The notes: a model not told the origin generated them from the letters alone. Counted from the stretch's first letter, positions 36,401-55,408 are shown. The stretch: DNA of 64,000 nt from a virus (IMGVR_UViG_3300044541_000063:1-64000); one strand, 5' to 3'. A program made the numbers and translations.

Positions 36401-37774
36401 GTGCTGGACTACGCGACAGTCGACGCGACAGCCGAGCAGGCGCAGGAGGCGGCGCGAGCAGCGCTGCCGGTGCAGCTGACAGAGAAACAGCTGGCGGCGC
36501 TGGACGTGATGGCCGGGCCGCAGACACACACGTGCGGCGTCGGTGGTTCTCGCTCTGGAAAGACGTTCCTGTTTACCCGCTCGATGATCATGCGTGGACT
36601 CCGGGCCGCCCACTCCCGTCACCTGTTCGTCAGGCACCACGCGAATGCGCTTCGGGCCTCGGTGTGGCTGGACACGTTCCCCAAGGTCATGAGACTGTGC
36701 TTCCCGGGAGTCAAGTGCATTCCGCACAGAATGGACGGCTTCGAGGAGTTGCCCAATGGGTCGCAGCTGTGGTTCGGTGGACTGGACGAGGGAGACCGCA
36801 CCGAGAAGATTCTGGGCCAGGAGTACGCGACGATCTACGCGGGCGAGTGCAGTCAGATCCCGTATGGTTCGATCGTAGTTCTCCGTACGCGCTTAGCGCA
36901 GCCGGACACTGGGCTGACCTTGAGAGGATTCTACGATCTAAATCCCACCTCCAAGAAACACTGGACCAATCTCGAGTTCGGCGAGAAGCTCGACCCGATC
37001 GCGCTCAAGCCACTGCCCAATCCAGAGGACTTCGAGCGGTTCTTCATTCAGCCGAAGGACAACGCGCGCAACCTGGACCCGAAGTACCTCAAGGGTCTCG
37101 AGAACCTGCCCGAGATGTACAAGATACGTTTCTGGAGGGGCGAGTACAGCGTCGACATCGAGGGAGCTCTGTGGACCAGTGACGTCATCGAACTCAATCG
37201 CATCGAGCCGATCGATCCACTCGCGAATCCAGGTGCGCTGGCGCAGTTTCAGCGCATCGAGATCGGCGTGGACCCGAGTGGCGCCATGTCGAAGTTCGAC
37301 ATGAAGTCCGACGCGATCGGCATCGTAGTCATGGGACGCACTCACGGCGTGCGCGGCAAGCGTAACGCAGTCGTGCTCGAGGACGGTACGCTGCGCGGTA
37401 GTCCAGAGGAGTGGGGCAAGCGCGTGGCCGCGCTGTACAAGAAGTGGAAGGCCGATCGCGTGGTGGCAGAGATCAACTTCGGCGGAGCCATGGTAGTGTC
37501 GACGATCAAGCTCGTCGAGCCGGCCATCAAGGTCGAGGTGGTCACTGCCTCGCGCGGCAAGGTGCAGCGTGCAGAACCCATCAGCGCACTGCAGGACCAG
37601 AACATGGTGAAGTACGCCGGCTACTTCCCGGAGCTGGAGTCGGAGCTCTGCAACTTCTCGAAGTTCGGCTATCAGGGCGACAGGTCGCCGGACAGGGCAG
37701 ACGCCAAGATCTGGGTCGCGTCGTCGCTCATGGTCGAGGAGACCAGCACCTACACGCTGATGCACGTGTCATGA
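36401..37774 (+). CDS. terL: Terminase large subunit
   Basis: Walker A GGSRSGKT, YAGECSQ, DLNP, nuclease GVDPS..DAIG..DRADA. Confidence 0.95.
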   Translation: MLDYATVDATAEQAQEAARAALPVQLTEKQLAALDVMAGPQTHTCGVGGSRSGKTFLFTRSMIMRGLRAAHSRHLFVRHHANALRASVWLDTFPKVMRLCFPGVKCIPHRMDGFEELPNGSQLWFGGLDEGDRTEKILGQEYATIYAGECSQIPYGSIVVLRTRLAQPDTGLTLRGFYDLNPTSKKHWTNLEFGEKLDPIALKPLPNPEDFERFFIQPKDNARNLDPKYLKGLENLPEMYKIRFWRGEYSVDIEGALWTSDVIELNRIEPIDPLANPGALAQFQRIEIGVDPSGAMSKFDMKSDAIGIVVMGRTHGVRGKRNAVVLEDGTLRGSPEEWGKRVAALYKKWKADRVVAEINFGGAMVVSTIKLVEPAIKVEVVTASRGKVQRAEPISALQDQNMVKYAGYFPELESELCNFSKFGYQGDRSPDRADAKIWVASSLMVEETSTYTLMHVS

Positions 37775-38247: not shown

Positions 38248-41200
38248 ATGTCTGTGAGCAACGTTCACCCGCTTCCGGGCCGCGTCGACAGTCCTATCCT
38301 GGACACGCTCGTCAACTTGCTGTCGGGTCTCGGCACGGCCAAGGACAAGAGCACGTCGACGCAGTTCACGCTGCAGATACTCGATCCTGGACAGCTGCTA
38401 GCCGCGTATCGCGGCGACTGGGTAGCGCGCAAGATCATCGACTGTCCAGCGCAGGACTCCACTCGCGAGTGGCGCTCGTGGCAGGCCGACAAGAAGGACA
38501 TCACCGAGATCGAGAAGACCGAGAAGGACCTCAAGCTCCAGTCGAAGGTCAAGGTCGCCATGCAGCGCGCCCGTCTGTGGGGCGGCGCGGCTCTCATCCT
38601 CGGCGTGGACCAGGGCTCGCATGACAAGGAGCTCAAGGTCGATCGCGTCAGGCAGGGTCAGCTGAAGTACGTTCACGTGGTGAACAAGCAGGACATTCAA
38701 GTAGACGGCGGCCTCGACCTCGACGTCACGTCCGAGTTCTACGGCGAGCCTGTGTCGTACACCGTCAACAGTCCGAAGACCGGCATAGTCAAGATCCATC
38801 CGTCGCGCGTCATCAGGTTCCTGGGCAACGAGATCCCCGACATAAACCTGTCGCAGGACGGATGGGGCGACAGCACGCTGCAGAGTATCTACGACGCGGT
38901 GATACAGGCCGGGCAGACCGCCGCCAACGTGGCCAGCCTAGTGAACGAGGCCAAGATCGACGTCGTTCAGATACCGGGCCTCATGCAGATGATGGGGACG
39001 CAGGAGTACCGCGCGAAGCTCATCGAGAGGTTCACGCTTGCGAACTCTATGAAGTCCCTCACCAACACTCTGATCCTCGACGGCGAGGAGGAGTGGAACA
39101 GGCTCAACGCGTCGTTCGCAGGTCTGCCAGACATCATCCGCATGTATCTGCTCATGGCCAGTGGTGCCGCTGACATTCCCGCCACGCGTCTACTCGGTCA
39201 GTCCTCTTCGGGCCTCAACGCCACTGGCCAAGAAGATACTCGCAACTACTACGACAGGCTGGCGAGTGAGCAGACCAACGACCTCACGCCTCGCCTGGAC
39301 AGGCTCGACGAGGTGCTGGTACGCAGCACCTTCGGCGACAAGCCCGAGGAGATGACGTACGACTGGAACTCGCTGTGGCAGCTGTCCAAGACCGAGGCCG
39401 CAGACGTGGCGGTGAAGAAGGCCACGGTGTACACGGCAGACGTCAACGCCGGGCTGCTCCCACCGGAGGTCATGCGCGAGGGTCGCGAGAACCAGCTCAT
39501 CGAGGATCAGGTGTATCCCGGCCTCGAGCAGGCCATCGACGAGTATGGCCAGCAGAACCTCGACGAGTACAATCAGGCCGTCGTCGCGCAGATGGGCGCG
39601 CGCGCCGCTCTCATGGCGCCGGACGATCCCAACGACCCGAACGGCGGCAAGAAGAAAGCAGCTGCGGCCAAAGCAGAGCTCACTCGCCGCAAGGCTCTAC
39701 CTCCGCCGCGTCCCCCGGCTGCGCGCTCGCAGGACTCGCGAGAGAGGGTTGTCTACACGTCCAATCCTAGAGGCGATGGTAGTGACTGGCTCTTCGCGTT
39801 CGACAAGGCCAACGCGGCCATCTGGAAGGACGGAGGTCCTTACCCAGAGCCGAGGTTCGCAGAGGACGAGACCACGCCTCGCAGCCTGTACGTGCGCCGC
39901 GACGTGCTCAACGGCGAGGAGATACTCGCGCACTTCGCAGAGCAGGGCGTCGACGTGAGCGGTGTCGAGCCGGAAGACCTTCACGTCACCGTGTTGTACT
40001 CCAGGCAGCCCGTCGACTGGATCAAGATGGGCGAGTCCAGCTACGGTCAGATCGGGCGCGGCGAGGACATGCCTGAGGGCTGCGACATGTGCGTGCGCGC
40101 CGGCGGACCGCGCGTGATGGAGGCGTACGGCGTTCCTCCCGACACGCTCGTCATGTGCTTCGCGTCGAGCGCGCTGTGCTGGCGTCACCAGGACATGGTC
40201 TATAAGGGCGCGAGCGAGGACTACGAGTTTAGTCCGCACCTGAGCATCGCTCCGTGGGACGGCACCGACCCGCGCACGTACGAGGCGTTTCAGGGAGAGA
40301 TCGAACTCGGCCCGGAGATCTTCGAGCCGTGCAAGTCGGGCGGCGCCGGGGGCGAGGCGTACGACTACGACCCCTCCGAGCCGCGCGCGCAGGCCGGTAC
40401 GGCGTTCGGCGGACAGTGGACACGCGAGGGTGCCGCGGCGGCGCGGCAGTCTCGAATCGACAAGACCCTGGCGACGCGGAGCGAGAGAGCTAAAGGCGAC
40501 GTTGGCGCGCGTCTCAAGCGCACGCGCGAGGCCGCAGTGGCCAAGTCCAAGCGCGTCACGGCAGCTGCCGTGCACAAGGCAGTCGCGTTCCTGAAGAACA
40601 ACGAGAGGCGCTCGAAGAGCATCGGCGCGCTGGCTGCGTCGCTGTCTGGCATGCTCGCAGGCGTCGACCACGTCACAGAGGCCATGATTCATCAGGCGGT
40701 GTCGGACTTCTCGTCTACGCTGGGCGTCACTGTCGCGGTGGGACGCACCAAGATGCGCGAGGCCCTCAACAAGGCCATCAAGATACGTCGCGGTCTCACG
40801 GGCGACGCGGAGGAGCCTGAGGCCGAGGACGAGGTTCTCCAGACGCTGCTCGCGCTGCTGAAGATGCTCGACGCCACTGCCGCAGACGCCCTCATCAAGG
40901 ACTGGCGCGGCACTGTCGGCGACTACAGTCCAGATCAGCCGCGCGTGCCGAGAGGCAGCGAGGGAGGCGGTCGCTTCGCGACCAGCGGCGGTGCGTACAC
41001 GGGCGTTCTCGAGAAGGCCGGCATGTTCGTGAGGTTCGTCAAGGCCAGGCGACTGGAGTCTGGTCGCGGCTACAACGCGTTCTACAAGAAGAACGACTTG
41101 AACCCGTCGGGCAATCCGCAGACCGTAGAGGTCGGTCAGCAGGTGCGCGGCGTGAAGGGCAAGTGGAACAAGAACACCGACCACGCCGGCGACTACGCGG

Positions 41201-41532
41201 CCGGCTCGGGCTGGCTGCTGCTGCAGGAGTTCTCGGAGATGGGTCGGTTCGCCGATCAGTTCTGGAGGGACGCCGCTCAGTTCATGACTCCCGGCGAGTA
41301 CGAGCGCGCCAAGCCGTACTTCAGCACGCGCACCAGGGCATTCGTAGAGGGCTTCCGCGCCACGTACTCTCCGAACGGCAAGGCGTTCGGCCTGAGCAGG
41401 GCGCGCACGTCCGAGGTGTTCGGCAGGGCCACGTCGAACATGTCGTCGGGCATCGACCAGATATTCGCGCCTCCCAAGCCGGGTCTCATCGAGCGCACCG
41501 GCGAGCGCATCGCCAAGTTCTTCGGAGTGTAG
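38248..41532 (+). CDS. Portal protein (DUF1073 family) fused to an Acb1-like 2H phosphoesterase and two further tagged cargo domains
   Basis: Y...WVARKIID.PAQD.TREW, IHPSRVIRF, GWGDS.LQ, SGLNATG..D..NYYD; HVT (39982) and HLS (40237) 2H motifs; PR tags at 40363 and 40921. Confidence 0.92.
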   Translation: MSVSNVHPLPGRVDSPILDTLVNLLSGLGTAKDKSTSTQFTLQILDPGQLLAAYRGDWVARKIIDCPAQDSTREWRSWQADKKDITEIEKTEKDLKLQSKVKVAMQRARLWGGAALILGVDQGSHDKELKVDRVRQGQLKYVHVVNKQDIQVDGGLDLDVTSEFYGEPVSYTVNSPKTGIVKIHPSRVIRFLGNEIPDINLSQDGWGDSTLQSIYDAVIQAGQTAANVASLVNEAKIDVVQIPGLMQMMGTQEYRAKLIERFTLANSMKSLTNTLILDGEEEWNRLNASFAGLPDIIRMYLLMASGAADIPATRLLGQSSSGLNATGQEDTRNYYDRLASEQTNDLTPRLDRLDEVLVRSTFGDKPEEMTYDWNSLWQLSKTEAADVAVKKATVYTADVNAGLLPPEVMREGRENQLIEDQVYPGLEQAIDEYGQQNLDEYNQAVVAQMGARAALMAPDDPNDPNGGKKKAAAAKAELTRRKALPPPRPPAARSQDSRERVVYTSNPRGDGSDWLFAFDKANAAIWKDGGPYPEPRFAEDETTPRSLYVRRDVLNGEEILAHFAEQGVDVSGVEPEDLHVTVLYSRQPVDWIKMGESSYGQIGRGEDMPEGCDMCVRAGGPRVMEAYGVPPDTLVMCFASSALCWRHQDMVYKGASEDYEFSPHLSIAPWDGTDPRTYEAFQGEIELGPEIFEPCKSGGAGGEAYDYDPSEPRAQAGTAFGGQWTREGAAAARQSRIDKTLATRSERAKGDVGARLKRTREAAVAKSKRVTAAAVHKAVAFLKNNERRSKSIGALAASLSGMLAGVDHVTEAMIHQAVSDFSSTLGVTVAVGRTKMREALNKAIKIRRGLTGDAEEPEAEDEVLQTLLALLKMLDATAADALIKDWRGTVGDYSPDQPRVPRGSEGGGRFATSGGAYTGVLEKAGMFVRFVKARRLESGRGYNAFYKKNDLNPSGNPQTVEVGQQVRGVKGKWNKNTDHAGDYAAGSGWLLLQEFSEMGRFADQFWRDAAQFMTPGEYERAKPYFSTRTRAFVEGFRATYSPNGKAFGLSRARTSEVFGRATSNMSSGIDQIFAPPKPGLIERTGERIAKFFGV

Positions 41533-41533
41533 C

Positions 41534-41875
41534 ATGCTGATGTATCGCGTGTCGCCTCTGTCAGACGGCAAGATGGGCGTGCAGCTCATAGACGGGGACT
41601 TCGTCACCGAGGTGGTCGGCGACGACGCCGAGGGGCTCAGGCCCGGCTACTACAACGACCACGGAGTGCTCATTCGCTCCCTGAGTGACGAACCAGTGGT
41701 GTTCGAGAAAGGTGGACAGCGTGCACACTCTCAGATGGAACCCGTCGATCATGCGGTGGATCGTGGAGTTCGTCGCGCAGGGCAGGCAGACGACTATCGG
41801 CTTCCTCGAAAAGGGGCAAGACGCCGTCGATCTGGTAAACTGTCTAAACGGCGGACAGCCGGCGGCGGTTACTGA
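41534..41875 (+). CDS. Hypothetical protein (3' part overlaps next gene)
   Basis: GGAG RBS. Confidence 0.45.
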   Translation: MLMYRVSPLSDGKMGVQLIDGDFVTEVVGDDAEGLRPGYYNDHGVLIRSLSDEPVVFEKGGQRAHSQMEPVDHAVDRGVRRAGQADDYRLPRKGARRRRSGKLSKRRTAGGGY

Positions 41876-41969
41876 GGATCCGCGCGGCGGCAAGCTCGGC
41901 GTGACGCCGGGCGTCAGCGACGCCGACCTGATGAAGCAGCTGGAGACCGAAGAGGCTGCTACGAAATAA
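41721..41969 (+). CDS. Hypothetical protein
   Basis: AAAGGTGG RBS before GTG. Confidence 0.5.
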   Translation: MHTLRWNPSIMRWIVEFVAQGRQTTIGFLEKGQDAVDLVNCLNGGQPAAVTEDPRGGKLGVTPGVSDADLMKQLETEEAATK

Positions 41970-42044
41970 CAGAGGGACTCCAGCGAGAGTCTCCGGTACG
42001 GAAGGGGCGAGGAAACTAATCCTCACAACATGGGAGTTAGGACA

Positions 42045-42809
42045 ATGCGATTTCTTCTTGCTATCGTTCTCGGCGCCTTCGGCACTGCCGCGTTCGCGGC
42101 CGACATGCCGCTCAAGGCGCCGCGCGCAGCACCAGTCGTCGTCGACGGCTGGCAGGGACTCTACGTCGGCATCCAGGGCGGCGAGAACCTCGGCTCGTAC
42201 AATCCGCTGTTCGGCGTCGGCGACGTGGCCACGAAGGTCAACCTCGACGACAACGCGCCGTTCGTCGGTGCTCACATCGGCTACCTGTTCGGCGACACCA
42301 TCTACTTCGGCCCAGAGCTCGGCGTTCAGTACTGGAACTTCAAGAAGAAAGGCGATCTGGTGGCCGGCACGCCAGAGATTCCTCCGAGCGAGGAGCTTCC
42401 GGCCATCGCCGCGACGCCGGCCGTGCAGCTGCAGCAGACCATCGACTGGATGGTCTACGCCAACGTTCGTGTCGGCGCCTCGCTGATCCCGAACACTCTG
42501 ATCTACGTCACGGGCGGCGCCGCGTGGGCGCACGTGCGCGGCGAGATTCTCAACGGCGGCACGCTGGGCGCGCTGTCGGCGTTCGACCAGGGCGTTCTCG
42601 GGTGGAACGTGGGTGCCGGCCTCGAGTTCAAGCTCGGACCTAACCTCGTGCTCGGCGCCGAGTATCGGCACATGGACTTCGGCAAGGTGTCGCCGGCTAA
42701 TCCAGCGCTGGCTCTCATCGGGCTGGCACCGGCCGCACTCACGGTCGATCAGGCCATGGGGCGTCTGTCGTGGCGCTTCGCTCCTGGCGGCGGCTACGCT
42801 CAGTACTGA
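42045..42809 (+). CDS. Omp25/RopB-like 8-stranded outer-membrane beta-barrel
   Basis: Signal peptide ending AFA-ADMPLKAP, WQGLYVG..GG, GWNVGAGLEF, AEYRH.DFG, C-terminal aromatic. Confidence 0.9.
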   Translation: MRFLLAIVLGAFGTAAFAADMPLKAPRAAPVVVDGWQGLYVGIQGGENLGSYNPLFGVGDVATKVNLDDNAPFVGAHIGYLFGDTIYFGPELGVQYWNFKKKGDLVAGTPEIPPSEELPAIAATPAVQLQQTIDWMVYANVRVGASLIPNTLIYVTGGAAWAHVRGEILNGGTLGALSAFDQGVLGWNVGAGLEFKLGPNLVLGAEYRHMDFGKVSPANPALALIGLAPAALTVDQAMGRLSWRFAPGGGYAQY

Positions 42810-42810
42810 C

Positions 42811-44310
42811 GTGCTACTGACTTCGCACCACCGCTGCGTCCGGCCGCGCCTTGGGGTCGCGGTCTCAGACGCGGCGCGCGCGCGAACCGACCCGACGGGC
42901 ACTGCTCCTATCGCCTCCCGATGGGACGCAGAGTTCGCCAGGAGGTTCGCGCGCGTCAAGCGCGTGCTGCACGAGGTGATCGTGACACGCGACACGCTCG
43001 GAATAAGCGACGATCTCAAGAAGAGGGTAGACGCATCAGTCGGGGGAGCGACCAGGGCGCAGCGCGCGGCGCGCGCCCTGGACCTCGTTCGCTCGGCGGT
43101 GCACTCCGAGATTCTGGGCTCCCCCGGCTACGCCGACTCGTGGCAGAACAAGTTCGTCGCGATGGCCGTGACCAAGGGCGTCACCGACGCGTACCGGCGC
43201 ATGAAGCAGGCCGGCATGGACGTGACCCTGGAGCTCACGGTGGACGTCGGCATAGGCCAGTCGGCGCAGCGGCGCGCGGACTTCATCGCTCAGCAGAGCT
43301 ACGATCTGCTCGAGGGCATCGACGCCGACATGGCGGCGCAGATGCAGGACATCATTCAGCAGGGTCTCCTGGACGGCAAGAGTCCGCAGCAGATAGCGCG
43401 CGAGCTTGACCAGGAGCTGGACATCGGTCGCACGCGCGCGCGCACCATAGCGCGCACCGAGACCATCGGCGCTCACGCCGACGCAACGCTCGACTCGTAC
43501 GAGGAGGGCGGCATCGAGGGCGTTCAGGCCGAGGTGGAGTTCGCCACGGCCGGTGACGACAACGTCTGTCCGCAGTGTCAAGCGCTGGAGGGCAGTACCT
43601 ACACCATCGAGGACGCGCGCGACGTCATTCCAGTGCACCCGAACTGTCGGTGCGCTTGGTTGCCGGTGATCGCCAGCACCGCGGACGCAGTCACCATAGA
43701 CTACGACCCGAGCGAGCCGCGCGTGCCGGCCGGCAGTGCCGAGGGCGGCGAGTGGACCAGCGAGGGCGGTGCTGGCAGCGCGCCGGGAGTCGAGGGCAGC
43801 GGCGGCGACGCGTCTAAGCAGAGAGCGCTCGACGTGGCCAAGGAGCTCAAGTTCTCTCCCAAGAAGATGGAGTTCTCCGACGAGAACAAAAAGTTCTCAG
43901 TGGCCGGCAAGCGCATGACGAAGGGCGGCGAGTACGACCCGGCTACCGGGAAGGTGACGTTCTTCTCGCACAACGTGAGTCCGGAGGACGCCGAGCTGAT
44001 AGCGGCGCACGAGATCACCCACTCGATGTATCACGACTACTTCGGCTCCGAGGGATACCAGGAGCCGCTGATACATCTGTTCGGCAGCTACGCCACGTTC
44101 GCCAGGGAGGGCGGCGTCGACGAGTACAGCAATCAGTGGTGGAAGGCTGTCGGCGAGGGAAGGGCCAGACCTGAGCAGGCCATAAACGAGACGCTCGCGT
44201 CCATGGCCTCCATTCAGTACACCACCGGGAAGGTGGTCGGCGGCCCCGAGCATCAGGCGCTGCTCAAGAGAATACAGCGCTATCGCGGCGTGAGCGGGAC
44301 CAAGAAGTGA
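42811..44310 (+). CDS. MuF/SPP1-gp7-like minor head protein with C-terminal HExxH zincin domain
   Basis: DPTGT, RARTIARTET..AH, VCPQC, IPVHPNCRCAW; tag DYDPSEPR at 43699; AHEITH at 44008. Start uncertain. Confidence 0.88.
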   Translation: MLLTSHHRCVRPRLGVAVSDAARARTDPTGTAPIASRWDAEFARRFARVKRVLHEVIVTRDTLGISDDLKKRVDASVGGATRAQRAARALDLVRSAVHSEILGSPGYADSWQNKFVAMAVTKGVTDAYRRMKQAGMDVTLELTVDVGIGQSAQRRADFIAQQSYDLLEGIDADMAAQMQDIIQQGLLDGKSPQQIARELDQELDIGRTRARTIARTETIGAHADATLDSYEEGGIEGVQAEVEFATAGDDNVCPQCQALEGSTYTIEDARDVIPVHPNCRCAWLPVIASTADAVTIDYDPSEPRVPAGSAEGGEWTSEGGAGSAPGVEGSGGDASKQRALDVAKELKFSPKKMEFSDENKKFSVAGKRMTKGGEYDPATGKVTFFSHNVSPEDAELIAAHEITHSMYHDYFGSEGYQEPLIHLFGSYATFAREGGVDEYSNQWWKAVGEGRARPEQAINETLASMASIQYTTGKVVGGPEHQALLKRIQRYRGVSGTKK

Positions 44311-52066: not shown

Positions 52067-53869
52067 ATGAATAAGACCAAGCGCGCCAAGGCAGGCGACA
52101 ACTGGGACGAGAGCGCTCACCCGCGCGCGCCGAAGGGCGGCGCCGGGGGAGGGCAGTTCGCAGGAGGCCAGACTGCGGGCGGCATCGACCAGGGCGAGGT
52201 CGGCTCCGGCTGGCATCCAGAGAAGGACAACACCTACGCCGGCCGCAAGCCGGACGAGGCGAAGTTCGGGCGCAGCAACGAAGACTTCAGCCTGACCGAC
52301 GAGGACGAGCAGTTCGTCGAGGACCACGGCGAGGCGTTCGTGCCGGTGCTCAACGAGCTGTTCCAGGAGTACGATGCCGCGCCTGCAGACGTCGAGAATT
52401 TCATGGAAGAGATGAACCTCAGCGACAGCACCGACACGGCGGCAGCCGACGTCCTCACGGCGTTTCACAACAGCTACGTCGGCACGTTCGAGGACACCGA
52501 TGCGGCGGCGGAGAACTTCATTCACGAGACGTACCCGCGCCTACCGAAGGCGTTCACCGACGCCATCAGCAGAAGCGACCTCAGCGACAGTCTGTTCTAC
52601 AACAAGGGCTCGCCGTACGCTGCTGTCGAGTCTGACAGTGGCGAGTACATGGTCTTCAAGAAGCCGGCGTCGATGGTCTCGCGAACCAAGGACGCGAAGC
52701 CGCTGGCGTTCGAGGTCGACAGCGTGAACCTGGAGAACACTCTGCAGCTGATCGGAGTCAACGACGACGGCGCCGCGCTGGTGCTCGACGAGGGCGCGAA
52801 CATCCACCGCACGGCTGACGGCTATCTGGCGGCCTTCCCCCGGATAGCCAGAACCGGAATTCAGGTCTATCGCGGCTACGAGATGGGCGCTCCCGACAAG
52901 GACAAGGTGCGCATCTACAGGCCGGAGAGCGAGGTCTTCGCGCCCGACAGCCTGCGGTCGTACGCGCACAAGCCCGTGACCAACGACCATCCGAAGGAGG
53001 CGGTCACCAAGGACAATTGGCGCAAGTACGCCGTCGGCAACATGGCAGACGAGATCATGCGCGACGGCGGGTTCGTTCGCATTCCTATGATGATCTCTGA
53101 CGGCGACGCCATCCAGGACGTCGAGGACGGCAAGCGTGAACTCTCGCTTGGCTACACGATGGACCTCGACATGACGCCGGGCAAGACGGAGGACGGCGAG
53201 TCCTACGACGGGGTCATGAGAAACATACGAGCCAATCATCTGGCGCTGGTCACCGCCGCCAGAGGTGGAAAGGAACTCAGGGTCGGTGACTCAGGAGAAG
53301 GAGCTATCATGAAGAAGATCGTAGTTGACGGCAACACCATCGAGGTCGACGACGTTGCGGCCGTCATCGTTCCGAAGCACATCGCGATGCTGGAGAAGAG
53401 CACCGCCGACGCAGCCACCGCCCTCAAGGTCGCGCAGGACAAGACGGCTGCCGACACGGCTACCATCGCCACCCTGACGGCCGAGAACGCGACCCTGGTG
53501 AAGAAGGTCGCCGACGCGAAGCTCTCGCCGCAGCAGATCGAGCAGCTGGTGCGCGACCGCGCCGTGGTCGTCACTCAGGCGCGCGCCGTGCTGCCGACCG
53601 TCGTCACCGACAGCCGCGAGCTCTGCGACATTCGTCGTCAGGTCGTGGACGCTGCCATGGGTGCCGCGGCCAAGGGCTGGAACGACGAGCAGGTCGCGTC
53701 GTCCTTCGCCGTTCTCACCAAGGACGTCGACACCAGGGCGAACGAGACTCAGGACAGTCTCAGGACTGCTCTCAGCCAGCCTGGTCCTCGAGTCGACGCG
53801 CGCGACGCGGCGTACGGCGAGTACGAGAACAAGCTGACCAACGCCTGGAAGAAGCCGGTCGCCGCCTAG
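52067..53869 (+). CDS. DUF2213 prohead protease/scaffold with N-terminal tag and acidic ArdA-like domain
   Basis: T.DGYL...IARTG.Q.Y, Y.HKP.T.DHP, ELSLGY, IR.NHLALV..AR.G; HPR tag at 52097; acidic domain 52290-52663. Confidence 0.88.
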   Translation: MNKTKRAKAGDNWDESAHPRAPKGGAGGGQFAGGQTAGGIDQGEVGSGWHPEKDNTYAGRKPDEAKFGRSNEDFSLTDEDEQFVEDHGEAFVPVLNELFQEYDAAPADVENFMEEMNLSDSTDTAAADVLTAFHNSYVGTFEDTDAAAENFIHETYPRLPKAFTDAISRSDLSDSLFYNKGSPYAAVESDSGEYMVFKKPASMVSRTKDAKPLAFEVDSVNLENTLQLIGVNDDGAALVLDEGANIHRTADGYLAAFPRIARTGIQVYRGYEMGAPDKDKVRIYRPESEVFAPDSLRSYAHKPVTNDHPKEAVTKDNWRKYAVGNMADEIMRDGGFVRIPMMISDGDAIQDVEDGKRELSLGYTMDLDMTPGKTEDGESYDGVMRNIRANHLALVTAARGGKELRVGDSGEGAIMKKIVVDGNTIEVDDVAAVIVPKHIAMLEKSTADAATALKVAQDKTAADTATIATLTAENATLVKKVADAKLSPQQIEQLVRDRAVVVTQARAVLPTVVTDSRELCDIRRQVVDAAMGAAAKGWNDEQVASSFAVLTKDVDTRANETQDSLRTALSQPGPRVDARDAAYGEYENKLTNAWKKPVAA

Positions 53870-53929: not shown

Positions 53930-54412
53930 ATGGGAGTTCTGCAGACTACCTACGTCGAGCGCATCTCGCAGGCGGTTGCCGGCATGATCGCCGACATGTC
54001 GAAGTCGAACGTCGACACGCGGTCTGTCGAGACCGTGGCCGGCATCGGCTTCGGCCTCGCGTGCGGCAAGGCCGTGGACGACAAGGGCGTCGTTCTCGGA
54101 GCCACGCTCACGACCGACTTCGTGGGCATCTCGGTTCGCGACATCACGTTGCCGCCGATCATCGGTGCTACCGTGGACGTCTATCCTCGGTACTCGAGCG
54201 CCGGCATCCTCACCGAGGGCGATATCTGGGTTATCGTGGGCGGCAACGTCGTCGATGGCGGCATCGTCACCTACAACAACGTGACGGGAGTCCTCTCGTC
54301 CATCGCACCGGCCGCCGGTCAGTTTCTGGTGATCGGTGGCCGCTGGATGACCACGGCTCTCAGCGGCGCACTCGCCGTCGTTCGCCTCACCGGTCCACTC
54401 GGGGCGGTGTAG
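53930..54412 (+). CDS. Capsid cement/decoration protein
   Basis: AVAGMIAD, IGFG.A, GISVR, G.IWV; position between protease and capsid genes. Confidence 0.75.
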   Translation: MGVLQTTYVERISQAVAGMIADMSKSNVDTRSVETVAGIGFGLACGKAVDDKGVVLGATLTTDFVGISVRDITLPPIIGATVDVYPRYSSAGILTEGDIWVIVGGNVVDGGIVTYNNVTGVLSSIAPAAGQFLVIGGRWMTTALSGALAVVRLTGPLGAV

Positions 54413-54454: not shown

Positions 54455-55408
54455 ATGCGCAATTTCGTACGAGACGCTCAGCAGGCTCTGGGATTTCTCA
54501 CGTCCCAGGTCAGCTCGATCGAGGCTACCGTGGTCAAGGTGCTTTACCCTGACATTCAGTACCCTCAGCTCATTCCGGTCGACACCAGTGCCAACGAGTG
54601 GGCCAAGTCGGTTACTTGGTTCTCGATGGACAAGCTCGGCCGCGCGCAGTGGTTTCAGCACCTCGCGAACGACATGCCGCTGGCAGACGTCCAGCGCACG
54701 AAGTTCGAGCAGGGTATCGAGATGGCCGGCATCGGATATCGCTACGATCTCGAGGAGATCGGGCAGGCCATGATGATTCCCGGGATGAACCTCACGACCG
54801 ACAAGGCCGAGGCGGCCCGCCGGGCGGCCGAGGAGTTCATCGACGACATTGCGCTTCGCGGAAGCACGGTGCGCAACTGGACTGGTCTGTTCAACGACGC
54901 GAACGTGGTCAACACGACTGCTCCAGCTGACGGTGTCGGTGCTCTAACAACCTGGGCATCGAAGGTGACGACGCCAGATCTCATTATCAGAGACATCAAC
55001 TTGGCCATCACTGGTGTCTACACTGGGTCTTTGACGGTCGAGATGGCAGACACGGTGCTCCTGCCAGTGGCAGAGCTGGCAAGGATCGCGACTCTACCAC
55101 GCTCGACTGCGTCTGACATGTCAGTCTTGGACTGGGTGACCAAGTACAATGTCTACACTGCGCAGACTGGGATACCCATCATGATGCGCGGTGTGCGAGG
55201 TCTAGAAGTCGCAGGACCTGGTCCCTCGCAGCGTATCATCGCGTACAAGCGGGATCCTCAGATTCTCAAGCTGCATCTGCCGATGCCTCACCGTTTCCTG
55301 CCGATCTGGCAGACCGGTCCCATGACGTTCGACATTCCCGGCATTCTCCGTCTGGGCGGCGTCGAGGTCAGGCGCCCTGGTGGTATTCGGTACATCAGCG
55401 GCATCTAG
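54455..55408 (+). CDS. Major capsid protein (DUF2184 family)
   Basis: Y.DIQYPQLIPVDT, GY.YDLEEI, GLFN, R.GGVE.R.P. Confidence 0.9.
   Translation: MRNFVRDAQQALGFLTSQVSSIEATVVKVLYPDIQYPQLIPVDTSANEWAKSVTWFSMDKLGRAQWFQHLANDMPLADVQRTKFEQGIEMAGIGYRYDLEEIGQAMMIPGMNLTTDKAEAARRAAEEFIDDIALRGSTVRNWTGLFNDANVVNTTAPADGVGALTTWASKVTTPDLIIRDINLAITGVYTGSLTVEMADTVLLPVAELARIATLPRSTASDMSVLDWVTKYNVYTAQTGIPIMMRGVRGLEVAGPGPSQRIIAYKRDPQILKLHLPMPHRFLPIWQTGPMTFDIPGILRLGGVEVRRPGGIRYISGI

Follow-up and report, generated by a model that had tools for sequence, protein, structure and literature searches.

A repeated peptide tag precedes cargo modules on the head genes of an IMG/VR phage and may act as a leader for head-carried proteins

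The first 64 kb of the phage genome IMGVR_UViG_3300044541_000063 (hereafter the window, 64,000 nucleotides; the IMG/VR genome is complete at 75,818 bp, with direct terminal repeats) encodes, in its head module, eight copies of a peptide tag of about 20 residues, which stand in front of separate protein modules. The copies are confined to four genes, namely those of the portal, the MuF protein, a free-standing polyprotein of four ADP-ribosyltransferase (ART) modules and the prohead protease. We consider it about an even bet (probability roughly 0.5) that the tag is a per-module docking-and-processing leader which is read inside the assembling head. Packaging, cleavage and injection of the tagged modules are what we infer from the evidence laid out below. 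The present genome is a clean example of the arrangement, with its eight tags on three classical head-internal carriers plus a free polyprotein.

The first-pass annotation had reported eight tag copies in the portal, MuF, a stand-alone polyprotein and the prohead protease. When the four open reading frames (ORFs) were translated, all eight peptides were recovered at exactly the coordinates of Table 1, and a hidden Markov model (HMM) built from them and applied to the six-frame translation of the whole genome found only these eight, the next best match scoring below 5 bits; the claim is thereby confirmed. A second HMM, built from 489 tags of other genomes, recovered seven of the copies at 22.9-41.2 bits (E 3.5e-6 to 6.7e-12), with a maximum of 11 bits in 20 shuffles. 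The core of the tag is [YWF]-x-P-x-[QEH]-P-R-x-P-x-G-x3-G-G-x-[WF], followed by a Gly/Ser-rich linker. Copy 4 (nt 44433) is five residues shorter than the long form; the protease ortholog P0210 has this short form too, and there it aligns in register with the long tags of the other orthologs. All but two of the eight copies are internal, and a single protein, the polyprotein, holds four. Among themselves the tags of this genome are 79-86% identical in DNA. In the AlphaFold2 (AF2) model the tag is disordered, and none of the Pfam and NCBIfam models covers it.

Table 1. Tag copies, tagged genes with their modules, and neighbouring genes in the window (own HMM, built from the eight copies; foreign HMM, built from tags of other genomes)
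Feature	Coordinates	Strand	Evidence
Tag copy 1, long, portal residues 706-724	40363..40419	+	47.7 bits own HMM; 22.9 bits foreign HMM
Tag copy 2, long, portal residues 892-910	40921..40977	+	45.0 bits own HMM; 35.8 bits foreign HMM
Tag copy 3, long, MuF ORF residue 363	43699..43755	+	51.1 bits own HMM; 41.2 bits foreign HMM
Tag copy 4, short HPR form, polyprotein residue 43	44433..44486	+	21.9 bits own HMM
Tag copy 5, long, polyprotein residue 229	44991..45047	+	51.0 bits own HMM; 34.3 bits foreign HMM
Tag copy 6, long, polyprotein residue 419	45561..45617	+	50.5 bits own HMM; 33.0 bits foreign HMM
Tag copy 7, long, polyprotein residue 605	46119..46175	+	47.6 bits own HMM; 35.2 bits foreign HMM
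Tag copy 8, long with HPR core, protease residue 11	52097..52159	+	36.1 bits own HMM; 28.1 bits foreign HMM
Portal fusion gene, 1094 aa: portal, Acb1, tag + module 1, tag + module 2	38248..41532	+	PF06381 residues 49-396, 1.1e-104
Untagged Acb1-like 2H phosphodiesterase domain on portal	39883..40335	+	PF23474 residues 546-696, 3.2e-19
Portal cargo module 1, long basic Ala-rich helices	40420..40920	+	without Pfam or PDB match
Portal cargo module 2	40978..41529	+	without Pfam, NCBIfam or PDB match
MuF gene, 499 aa: MuF, tag, zincin-like module	42811..44310	+	PF04233, TIGR01641
Zincin-like module behind MuF tag	43756..44307	+	HEITH (HExxH) motif
Free-standing polyprotein, 801 aa: 42-aa N-terminal piece, short tag, ART1-4	44307..46712	+	PF03496 four stretches, E 1.1e-84
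Prohead protease-scaffold gene, 600 aa: tag, acidic module, DUF2213 protease, helical C-terminus	52067..53869	+	PF09979, phrog_530
Acidic module, possible ArdA-like fold	52244..52681	+	AF2 core pLDDT 80-88
Terminase large subunit (TerL), start of head module	36401..37774	+	phrog_979 1.4e-51; Pfam Terminase_6C, Terminase_3
Outer-membrane beta-barrel gene, OmpA-like	42030-42809	+	PF13505, 1.4e-12
Capsid cement protein	53930..54412	+	PF22758 Phage_cement, 6.5e-29
Major capsid protein	54455..55408	+	PF09950, 1.6e-76

The tag is widespread. When 1.84 billion cluster representatives were searched exhaustively with a tag profile, 2,370 clusters matched at E<=0.001, of which 139 also reached E<=1e-10; single proteins have as many as ten tags. 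The tag alignment, used in a word-indexed search, gave 67 proteins, and their Pfam sets include, as head carriers, the portal families PF06381, PF04860 and PF06074, MuF and DUF2213, and, as cargo, ART, Acb1, Nudix, GNAT, ChaB, RNase A-like, Tox-REase-5, CdiA_C, PBECR3 and others. The geometry of the peptide is rigid: the spacing from the R to the final W/F is exactly 11 in 504 of 515 tags, in which P-R, P, G and G-G are near-invariant and a Gly/Ser/Ala-rich stretch lies behind. Since the median distance between tags is 229 residues, there is about one domain per tag. Of 205 proteins, 67 have their first tag among residues 1-40. Across 74 distinct tag sequences, 53% of same-residue pairs differ in codon, and all four codons are seen at the invariant P, R, V, A and G positions. 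Synonymous codons thus vary freely at invariant residues, from which it follows that selection acts on the peptide and not on the DNA.

At the DNA level, a degenerate pattern for Q-P-R-V-P-A-G was found in at least 119 IMG/VR loci, at least 62 of which hold true tags, and in at least 120 loci of prokaryote genomes with at least nine true tags, the named ones in Alphaproteobacteria; as both figures cover only the matches listed, the comparison between the two collections is crude. Four of 150 sampled Alphaproteobacteria genomes were tagged. The long-form consensus had no tblastn match in cultured phages and, apart from noise, two chromid or prophage-like matches in plasmids. The short form does reach a cultured phage, Pseudomonas phage Orisa03 (L257, 2270-4381), in which one protein, annotated as hypothetical only, consists of portal, short-form tag and ART; Orisa03 would be a convenient experimental model for the tag. 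Weaker matches were seen in portals of Xanthomonas phages and of a Helicobacter-associated phage record, and also in a Gordonia phage. Finally, a Streptomyces linear plasmid (L258 = NZ_CP122459.1 65835-83891) carries a short-form tag at residues 22-37 of a protein of about 6,290 aa, which is annotated as a DEAD/DEAH helicase and follows an 813-aa portal-MuF fusion; this plasmid looks like a phage-plasmid.

To establish the polarity of the arrangement, the tag-bearing ORFs of the IMG/VR loci were split at the tag. Among the matches listed, an HK97-type portal was present in at least 24 of the 59 upstream pieces and a Mu-type portal in at least two, the others being MuF, S78 protease or a 2H domain. 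The 72 downstream pieces yielded, again among the matches listed, RNase A-like domains (at least ten), ART (at least five) and MuF (at least two) besides Zeta toxin, CdiA_C, AHH nuclease and deaminases; none of these downstream pieces was a portal. A further 30 multi-tag representatives added ART-PolyVal, Acb1, topoisomerase IB, Nudix, GNAT, ChaB and one SAM-lyase match. The survey of downstream domains that the first-pass annotation had proposed therefore places the tag, with strict polarity and in hundreds of other elements, between head-internal carriers (portal, MuF, prohead protease) and effector or toxin domains. These loci suggest that portals, and not MuF alone, carry swappable toxins in alphaproteobacterial prophages and GTA-like (gene-transfer-agent-like) elements.

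The contig neighbourhood was determined for six stand-alone tagged proteins. Two belong to structural clusters like that of RcGTA, one is encoded beside a portal and an S78 protease and is followed by an Imm1-like gene, two have ordinary chromosomal surroundings, and the sixth has a neighbourhood of ambiguous type. GTA-like particles may, according to this placement, carry toxins or enzymes. In the two clusters (L124 and L127, bacterial contigs) the tagged cargo, one of it RNase A-like, stands amid GTA_TIM, Rcc01698_C, S78 protease and HK97-type portal genes. A tagged Tox-REase-5 protein and a tagged glucosaminidase (L125, L126) were seen in the neighbourhoods ftsZ-lpxC-bamD-recN-ligA and argF-hslO, with a small ORF following each. 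At L099, and also at L011, L013, L040, L084 and L103, orphan-like ORFs come after a full portal-tag-toxin gene and join a C-terminal portal fragment (70-83% identical) and a tag to cargo of another kind; L011 resembles a 3.4-kb tandem duplication or an assembly wrap.

What counts as cargo in the present phage can be read from its relatives. Portal and protease have their nearest cultured relatives, at about 40% aa identity, in the RHEph04 group of Rhizobium phages, Pseudanabaena phage Pam3 and some Pseudomonas phages; no near-identical phage was found in GenBank when the 8.5-kb region was compared with the phages there by megablast. Rhizobium phage RHEph04 has the same chassis, consisting of TerL, a portal-Acb1 protein of 615 aa, a MuF protein of 274 aa, a DUF2213 protease of 373 aa and the major capsid protein, and carries neither further add-ons nor the tag. 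Therefore, everything beyond those lengths in the present phage is extra cargo. The portal-Acb1 protein of RHEph04 ends at the point that matches the start of the first tag in the present portal. Where the architecture of tagged relatives differs, it differs exactly at the tags, and thus the tagged modules are portable units.

On the portal, the untagged Acb1-like domain noted in the first pass is well founded: it scores 69.5 bits against a curated cut-off of 27 (PF23474) and has both HxT/S motifs (H579-V-T and H664-L-S), by which it looks catalytically intact. The two modules at the portal C-terminus had no usable match in the PDB by sequence, in Pfam or NCBIfam at permissive thresholds, or in the ESM Atlas. 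For portal residues 698-1094, AF2 gave a model of low confidence (pLDDT, the predicted local distance difference test score, 51), with long helices for module 1. Module 2 is conserved only in the portal fusions of relatives.

The start of the MuF gene is most likely the GTG at 42811 and not at 42613, since this start agrees with the alignment to P0005 and P0010 and no other start codon is present. The zincin domain which had been assigned behind the MuF tag retains its HEITH motif, and the family assignment is weakly supported, with sub-threshold matches only (M78, E 0.17; minigluzincin 4qhj, E 0.64; Atlas neighbours ATLF and M90, 0.87-0.88) and no match to PF18818 MPTase-PolyVal at E<=10. The four tagged ARTs of the first-pass annotation, in contrast, hold in full: each of the four modules (ADPrib_exo_Tox) has the R / S-T-S / E-x-E set intact, and all four look catalytically competent from their motifs. 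A long tag stands ahead of each of ART2, ART3 and ART4, and the short tag ahead of ART1. The modules share 27-45% identity with one another, the long tags between them being far more alike. The polyprotein gene overlaps the MuF gene by 4 nt, leaving no small ORF between them; no immunity gene was found directly downstream of MuF, the next gene being the ART polyprotein itself. In P0005, P0007 and P0010 one protein has the order MuF-tag-ART-tag-ART, whereas MuF-tag-zincin and the ART string are two genes here, and P0006 and P0009 likewise have a free-standing ART string. These two also retain the 42-residue N-terminal piece (44307-44432), which the MuF-ART fusions lack and which may itself be a small carrier or pro-piece.

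In the protease-scaffold gene, PF09979 covers residues 248-409 (1.9e-53), and orthologs retain tag and acidic module ahead of the protease. The first-pass annotation had an ArdA-like domain behind this tag. In a fold search with the acidic module, ArdA (2w82_A) was indeed the best of 48,161 chains (Z 6.0, root-mean-square deviation 3.1, 107 residues; next Z 4.5), and the composition is strongly acidic, with 32 acidic against 10 basic residues in 146 and a net charge of about -22. However, Foldseek ranked ArdA third with E 0.92, and neither a search of the six-frame genome (E<=10) nor hmmscan (E<=5) gave a match to the ArdA profile (PF07275). The modest fold match and the composition thus speak for an ArdA-like domain and the profile searches do not, so that we treat the call, which depends on a predicted model, as a weakly supported lead and not as a finding. 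The anti-type-I-restriction part of the proposed injected cocktail is correspondingly weak, because it depends on this call.

In the reading that we favour, the tag would be a short disordered signal at the protein level, marking the N-terminal edge of each head-carried cargo module in tailed phages or GTA-like particles. Cargo would ride on three procapsid-internal proteins, i.e., the portal C-terminus, MuF and the prohead protease, with the four-ART polyprotein as a fourth carrier. The tag would let stand-alone tagged proteins enter the assembling head, and the head protease would separate strung modules by a cut directly on one side of the tag or the other. Once freed, the modules (Acb1-like, four ARTs, the acidic ArdA-like module, the zincin-like module and the two portal modules that match no family) could leave with the DNA and act ahead of phage gene expression. 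We favour this reading because the eight copies are confined to four head-module genes with none elsewhere in the genome, because the tag is widespread, rigid in spacing and strict in polarity with one domain per tag, because the first tag is often near the N-terminus, as expected of a leader, because selection acts on the peptide, and because relatives have modules exchanged at the tags. Its disorder fits as well, since short docking or cleavage motifs are usually disordered. Moreover, effectors (ART, 2H, Nudix and others) fused to MuF, portal or the capsid-processing peptidase have already been predicted to be packaged and injected early (PMC5512222; PMC9503650). The capsid-loading/ejection signal postulated in the first pass is partly supported, as far as a real, head-gene-confined tag with carrier-effector polarity and peptide-level selection goes; the loading and ejection roles themselves are plausible, but seven of the eight tags are in proteins already addressed to the capsid, for which reason we prefer a per-module leader.

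The residue directly before the tag aromatic (position -7) bears on cleavage. In the loci L004-L122 and proteins P0001-P0016, it is K in 29 of 39 tags of HK97-portal loci and D in 22 of 25 tags of the portal_3/DUF2213 lineage to which the present phage belongs, the core being unchanged. Such a difference would fit a lineage-specific reader, most simply the head protease cutting there, and it hints at cleavage at this residue. D-[YW]-x-P sites outside the tags were found neither in the major capsid protein nor in the protease or portal, and the tags of this phage have neither a Tyr-Ala nor an [LV]-x-E-A site ahead of them. A docking prediction of the tag peptide against the DUF2213 protease domain (residues 240-420) gave no answer (score 0.02) and is evidence neither way.

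Several points weigh against a leader read in the head. In the literature, we found no virion proteomics, cleavage mapping or injection data for any tagged protein, and across the wider tag family no conserved cleavage motif flanking the tag was found. The K/D difference at position -7 could reflect shared ancestry instead of protease specificity. As judged from the family assignments, one and the same core occurs with three portal and two protease families, which is awkward for a reader from a single phage protein family. The protease gene itself does not fit a simple model in which a cut at every tag frees a cargo: its tag lies 10 residues from the N-terminus, and no second tag separates the acidic cargo from the protease domain. 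Finally, two of the six stand-alone tagged proteins are chromosomal and have no phage gene closer than 10 kb.

Alternatively, the tag might be a pure address label which binds a component of the procapsid or of the ejection path and suffices to load and eject whatever stands behind it, cutting not being involved; this is the view of the first-pass annotation, and the T4 capsid-targeting sequence works in such a way. Many tagged proteins lack a carrier domain and have the tag in their first 40 residues, the ART polyprotein stands alone here and in P0006 and P0009 while the same modules are MuF-fused in relatives, and tagged toxin genes in GTA-like head clusters, or in some cases elsewhere on the chromosome, would need loading in trans. 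Yet seven of the eight tags are in proteins with a capsid address of their own, and one tag per module, not per protein, would be superfluous for addressing. No conserved receptor family co-occurs with the tag, portals and proteases being of different families; the protease tag is at the extreme N-terminus and not at a carrier-cargo joint, and the two chromosomal loci without phage genes count against a label too. We regard this account as unlikely, though as the most serious of the alternatives. Next to it, and likewise improbable, we place a tag that is read only after entry, in the recipient cell, where a host chaperone or protease would be recruited to refold, pull in, release or time-limit the modules. 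A core common to phages with unrelated head-gene families would be understandable in this case, and the QPRVPAG variant tracks host class instead of head type, the true matches listed in the genome scan (at least nine) all being from Alphaproteobacteria or unclassified Pseudomonadota. N-terminal Y, W and F are bacterial N-degron residues read by ClpS, and a cut just before the aromatic would give a cargo starting with Y, W or F, so that a link to ClpS can be conceived. However, gene flow among phages with common hosts explains the host-class restriction equally well, and the tagged giant protein on the Streptomyces plasmid adjoins portal and MuF. Somewhat more doubtful still is a two-part leader, in which the position -7 residue would be the cut site of the head protease (Lys for HK97-portal/S78-type heads, Asp for the DUF2213-type head) and the core would stay on the freed N-terminus. 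The retained core would guide exit with the DNA or recruit a conserved factor in the host, and the new Tyr, Trp or Phe terminus could perhaps be a ClpS N-degron which limits the lifetime of the injected enzymes and toxins. If this were true, the injected cargo of phages and GTAs, its processing sites and perhaps its lifetime would be readable from sequence.

Two further explanations deny the peptide a job of its own. It could be kept only as a joint, i.e., as homology for cassette swapping or demarcation of modules, a role proposed for the conserved pre-toxin motifs of CDI and Rhs loci. The module architecture of close relatives does differ exactly at the tags, orphan pieces of the L099 type combine a portal C-terminal fragment and tag with a different cargo, and the tags within the genome are 79-86% identical in DNA (see above). 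But synonymous sites vary freely and residues and spacing are fixed, so it is not DNA homology that is conserved, and twenty residues of invariant spacing far exceed the needs of a joint; we consider this explanation very unlikely. Least credible of all is an inert flexible linker whose similarity stems from recent duplication in a small gene pool. The Pro/Gly-rich, predicted disordered nature of the tag would suit a linker, but its invariant residues at fixed spacing and peptide-level selection would not, nor would its occurrence in 2,370 clusters, with a short form that reaches a Streptomyces phage-plasmid, a cultured Pseudomonas phage and, by weaker matches, Xanthomonas phages.

The favoured per-module leader was compared with known systems in which proteins are carried in phage heads. 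As the delivery concept, which is also what the first-pass annotation inferred, is already in print (PMC5512222, PMC9503650), what is new is the tag. A term search for a shared leader or junction motif found none in PMC5512222, PMC9503650 and PMC5576092; the motif strings of the tag gave nothing relevant in the literature, where "undescribed" is provisional as most subscription journals are outside coverage. Neither the tag nor any processing of portal extensions was described in the literature found on portal-toxin fusions, packaged anti-defence proteins and the Pam3 structure, and a literature search for the cleavage specificity of the HK97 protease found nothing. Among the closest known systems are the polyvalent and head-fused effectors (Iyer 2017, 2022), in which, as here, unrelated effector domains (ART, 2H/Acb1-like, zincin-like) are located on head-internal proteins or among late head genes. 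Two or more unrelated effector domains per polypeptide are present in our case, the portal having Acb1 plus two modules and the polyprotein four ARTs, and the gene order shows fusion to, or neighbourhood with, head-internal proteins. The term search of those papers gave no counterpart to the rigid peptide that here heads each module other than Acb1, and the MPTase-PolyVal profile fails on the zincin-like module.

In function, the nearest precedents are the T4 capsid-targeting sequence and the Dar loading system of P1, from which the tag departs in sequence, length, repetition and range. The internal proteins IPI-III and Alt of T4 have a short shared N-terminal capsid-targeting peptide, which is removed by the prohead protease, and the proteins are injected. 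The present tag is comparable as a shared peptide ahead of unrelated head-gene modules, in eight copies in four genes. However, the T4 signal has about 10 residues, is strictly N-terminal, is unrelated in sequence and is limited to T4-like phages, whereas the present tag has about 20, is often internal and repeated instead of single and strictly N-terminal, and is found with at least three portal families. Another conserved motif ahead of variable domains is known from contact-dependent inhibition (CDI) and Rhs systems, whose pre-toxin motifs (VENN of CdiA, DPxGL of Rhs) stand directly before the variable toxin domain, the Rhs motif being also a cleavage site. Orphan cassettes share the motif in both cases (here at L099), but sequence and delivery machine are different, and the tag is repeated before each module and precedes non-toxin enzymes too. 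In P1, the Dar proteins (DarA/Hdf, DarB, DdrB) are anti-restriction proteins in the head, bound to capsid and DNA, partly processed and lost on ejection (PMC12810830; PMC5512222). In contrast to the present modules, they are separate gene products with their own loading hierarchy, for which no such shared tag is described; a sequence relation between tag and Dar proteins was not found. The MuF polymorphic toxins of temperate phages have an N-terminal MuF carrier and a variable C-terminal toxin (Jamet et al. 2017, PMC5576092). MuF with a variable C-terminal domain is found here as well (zincin-like in this phage, ARTs in relatives), with the portal as carrier in many tagged loci. Unlike those toxins, MuF lacks an immunity gene behind it, and the cargo looks like host-takeover or anti-defence enzymes and not like growth-arrest toxins.

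Proteins that are carried in the head and injected before expression are known for few model phages (T4, P1, N4, T7). How a phage fares in the first minutes against restriction, CBASS (cyclic-oligonucleotide-based anti-phage signalling systems) and other defences is decided by such proteins. If the tag marks this cargo, the injected "first-strike" set could be listed from sequence for thousands of uncultured phages, prophages and GTA-like clusters. Modules such as the two on the portal would be flagged as candidate anti-defence or takeover factors, and the tag would be a portable handle to load chosen proteins into capsids.

The genes around the tagged ones were examined as well. The G+C content of the window is about 63%, and the head genes are ordered TerL, portal, a small ORF, the outer-membrane beta-barrel gene, MuF, the four-ART polyprotein, about 5 kb of ORFs, protease-scaffold, cement and major capsid protein. 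Placed between the portal and MuF genes, the beta-barrel gene resembles a moron within the head module, and its presence there suggests a Gram-negative host. The roughly 5 kb of ORFs between ART polyprotein and protease (46886-51968) had no family match, and none of them is tagged. Within this stretch is a 557-aa ORF (48879-50552) with a G+C fraction at third codon positions (GC3) of 0.78; its counterpart by position in RHEph04 is a 548-aa lysophospholipase-like esterase. Farther downstream, the gene at 61397-62872 (+ strand) encodes a 491-aa protein, probably a tail fibre or receptor-binding protein, in which a Laminin_G_3 / concanavalin-like domain was matched (1.1e-13).

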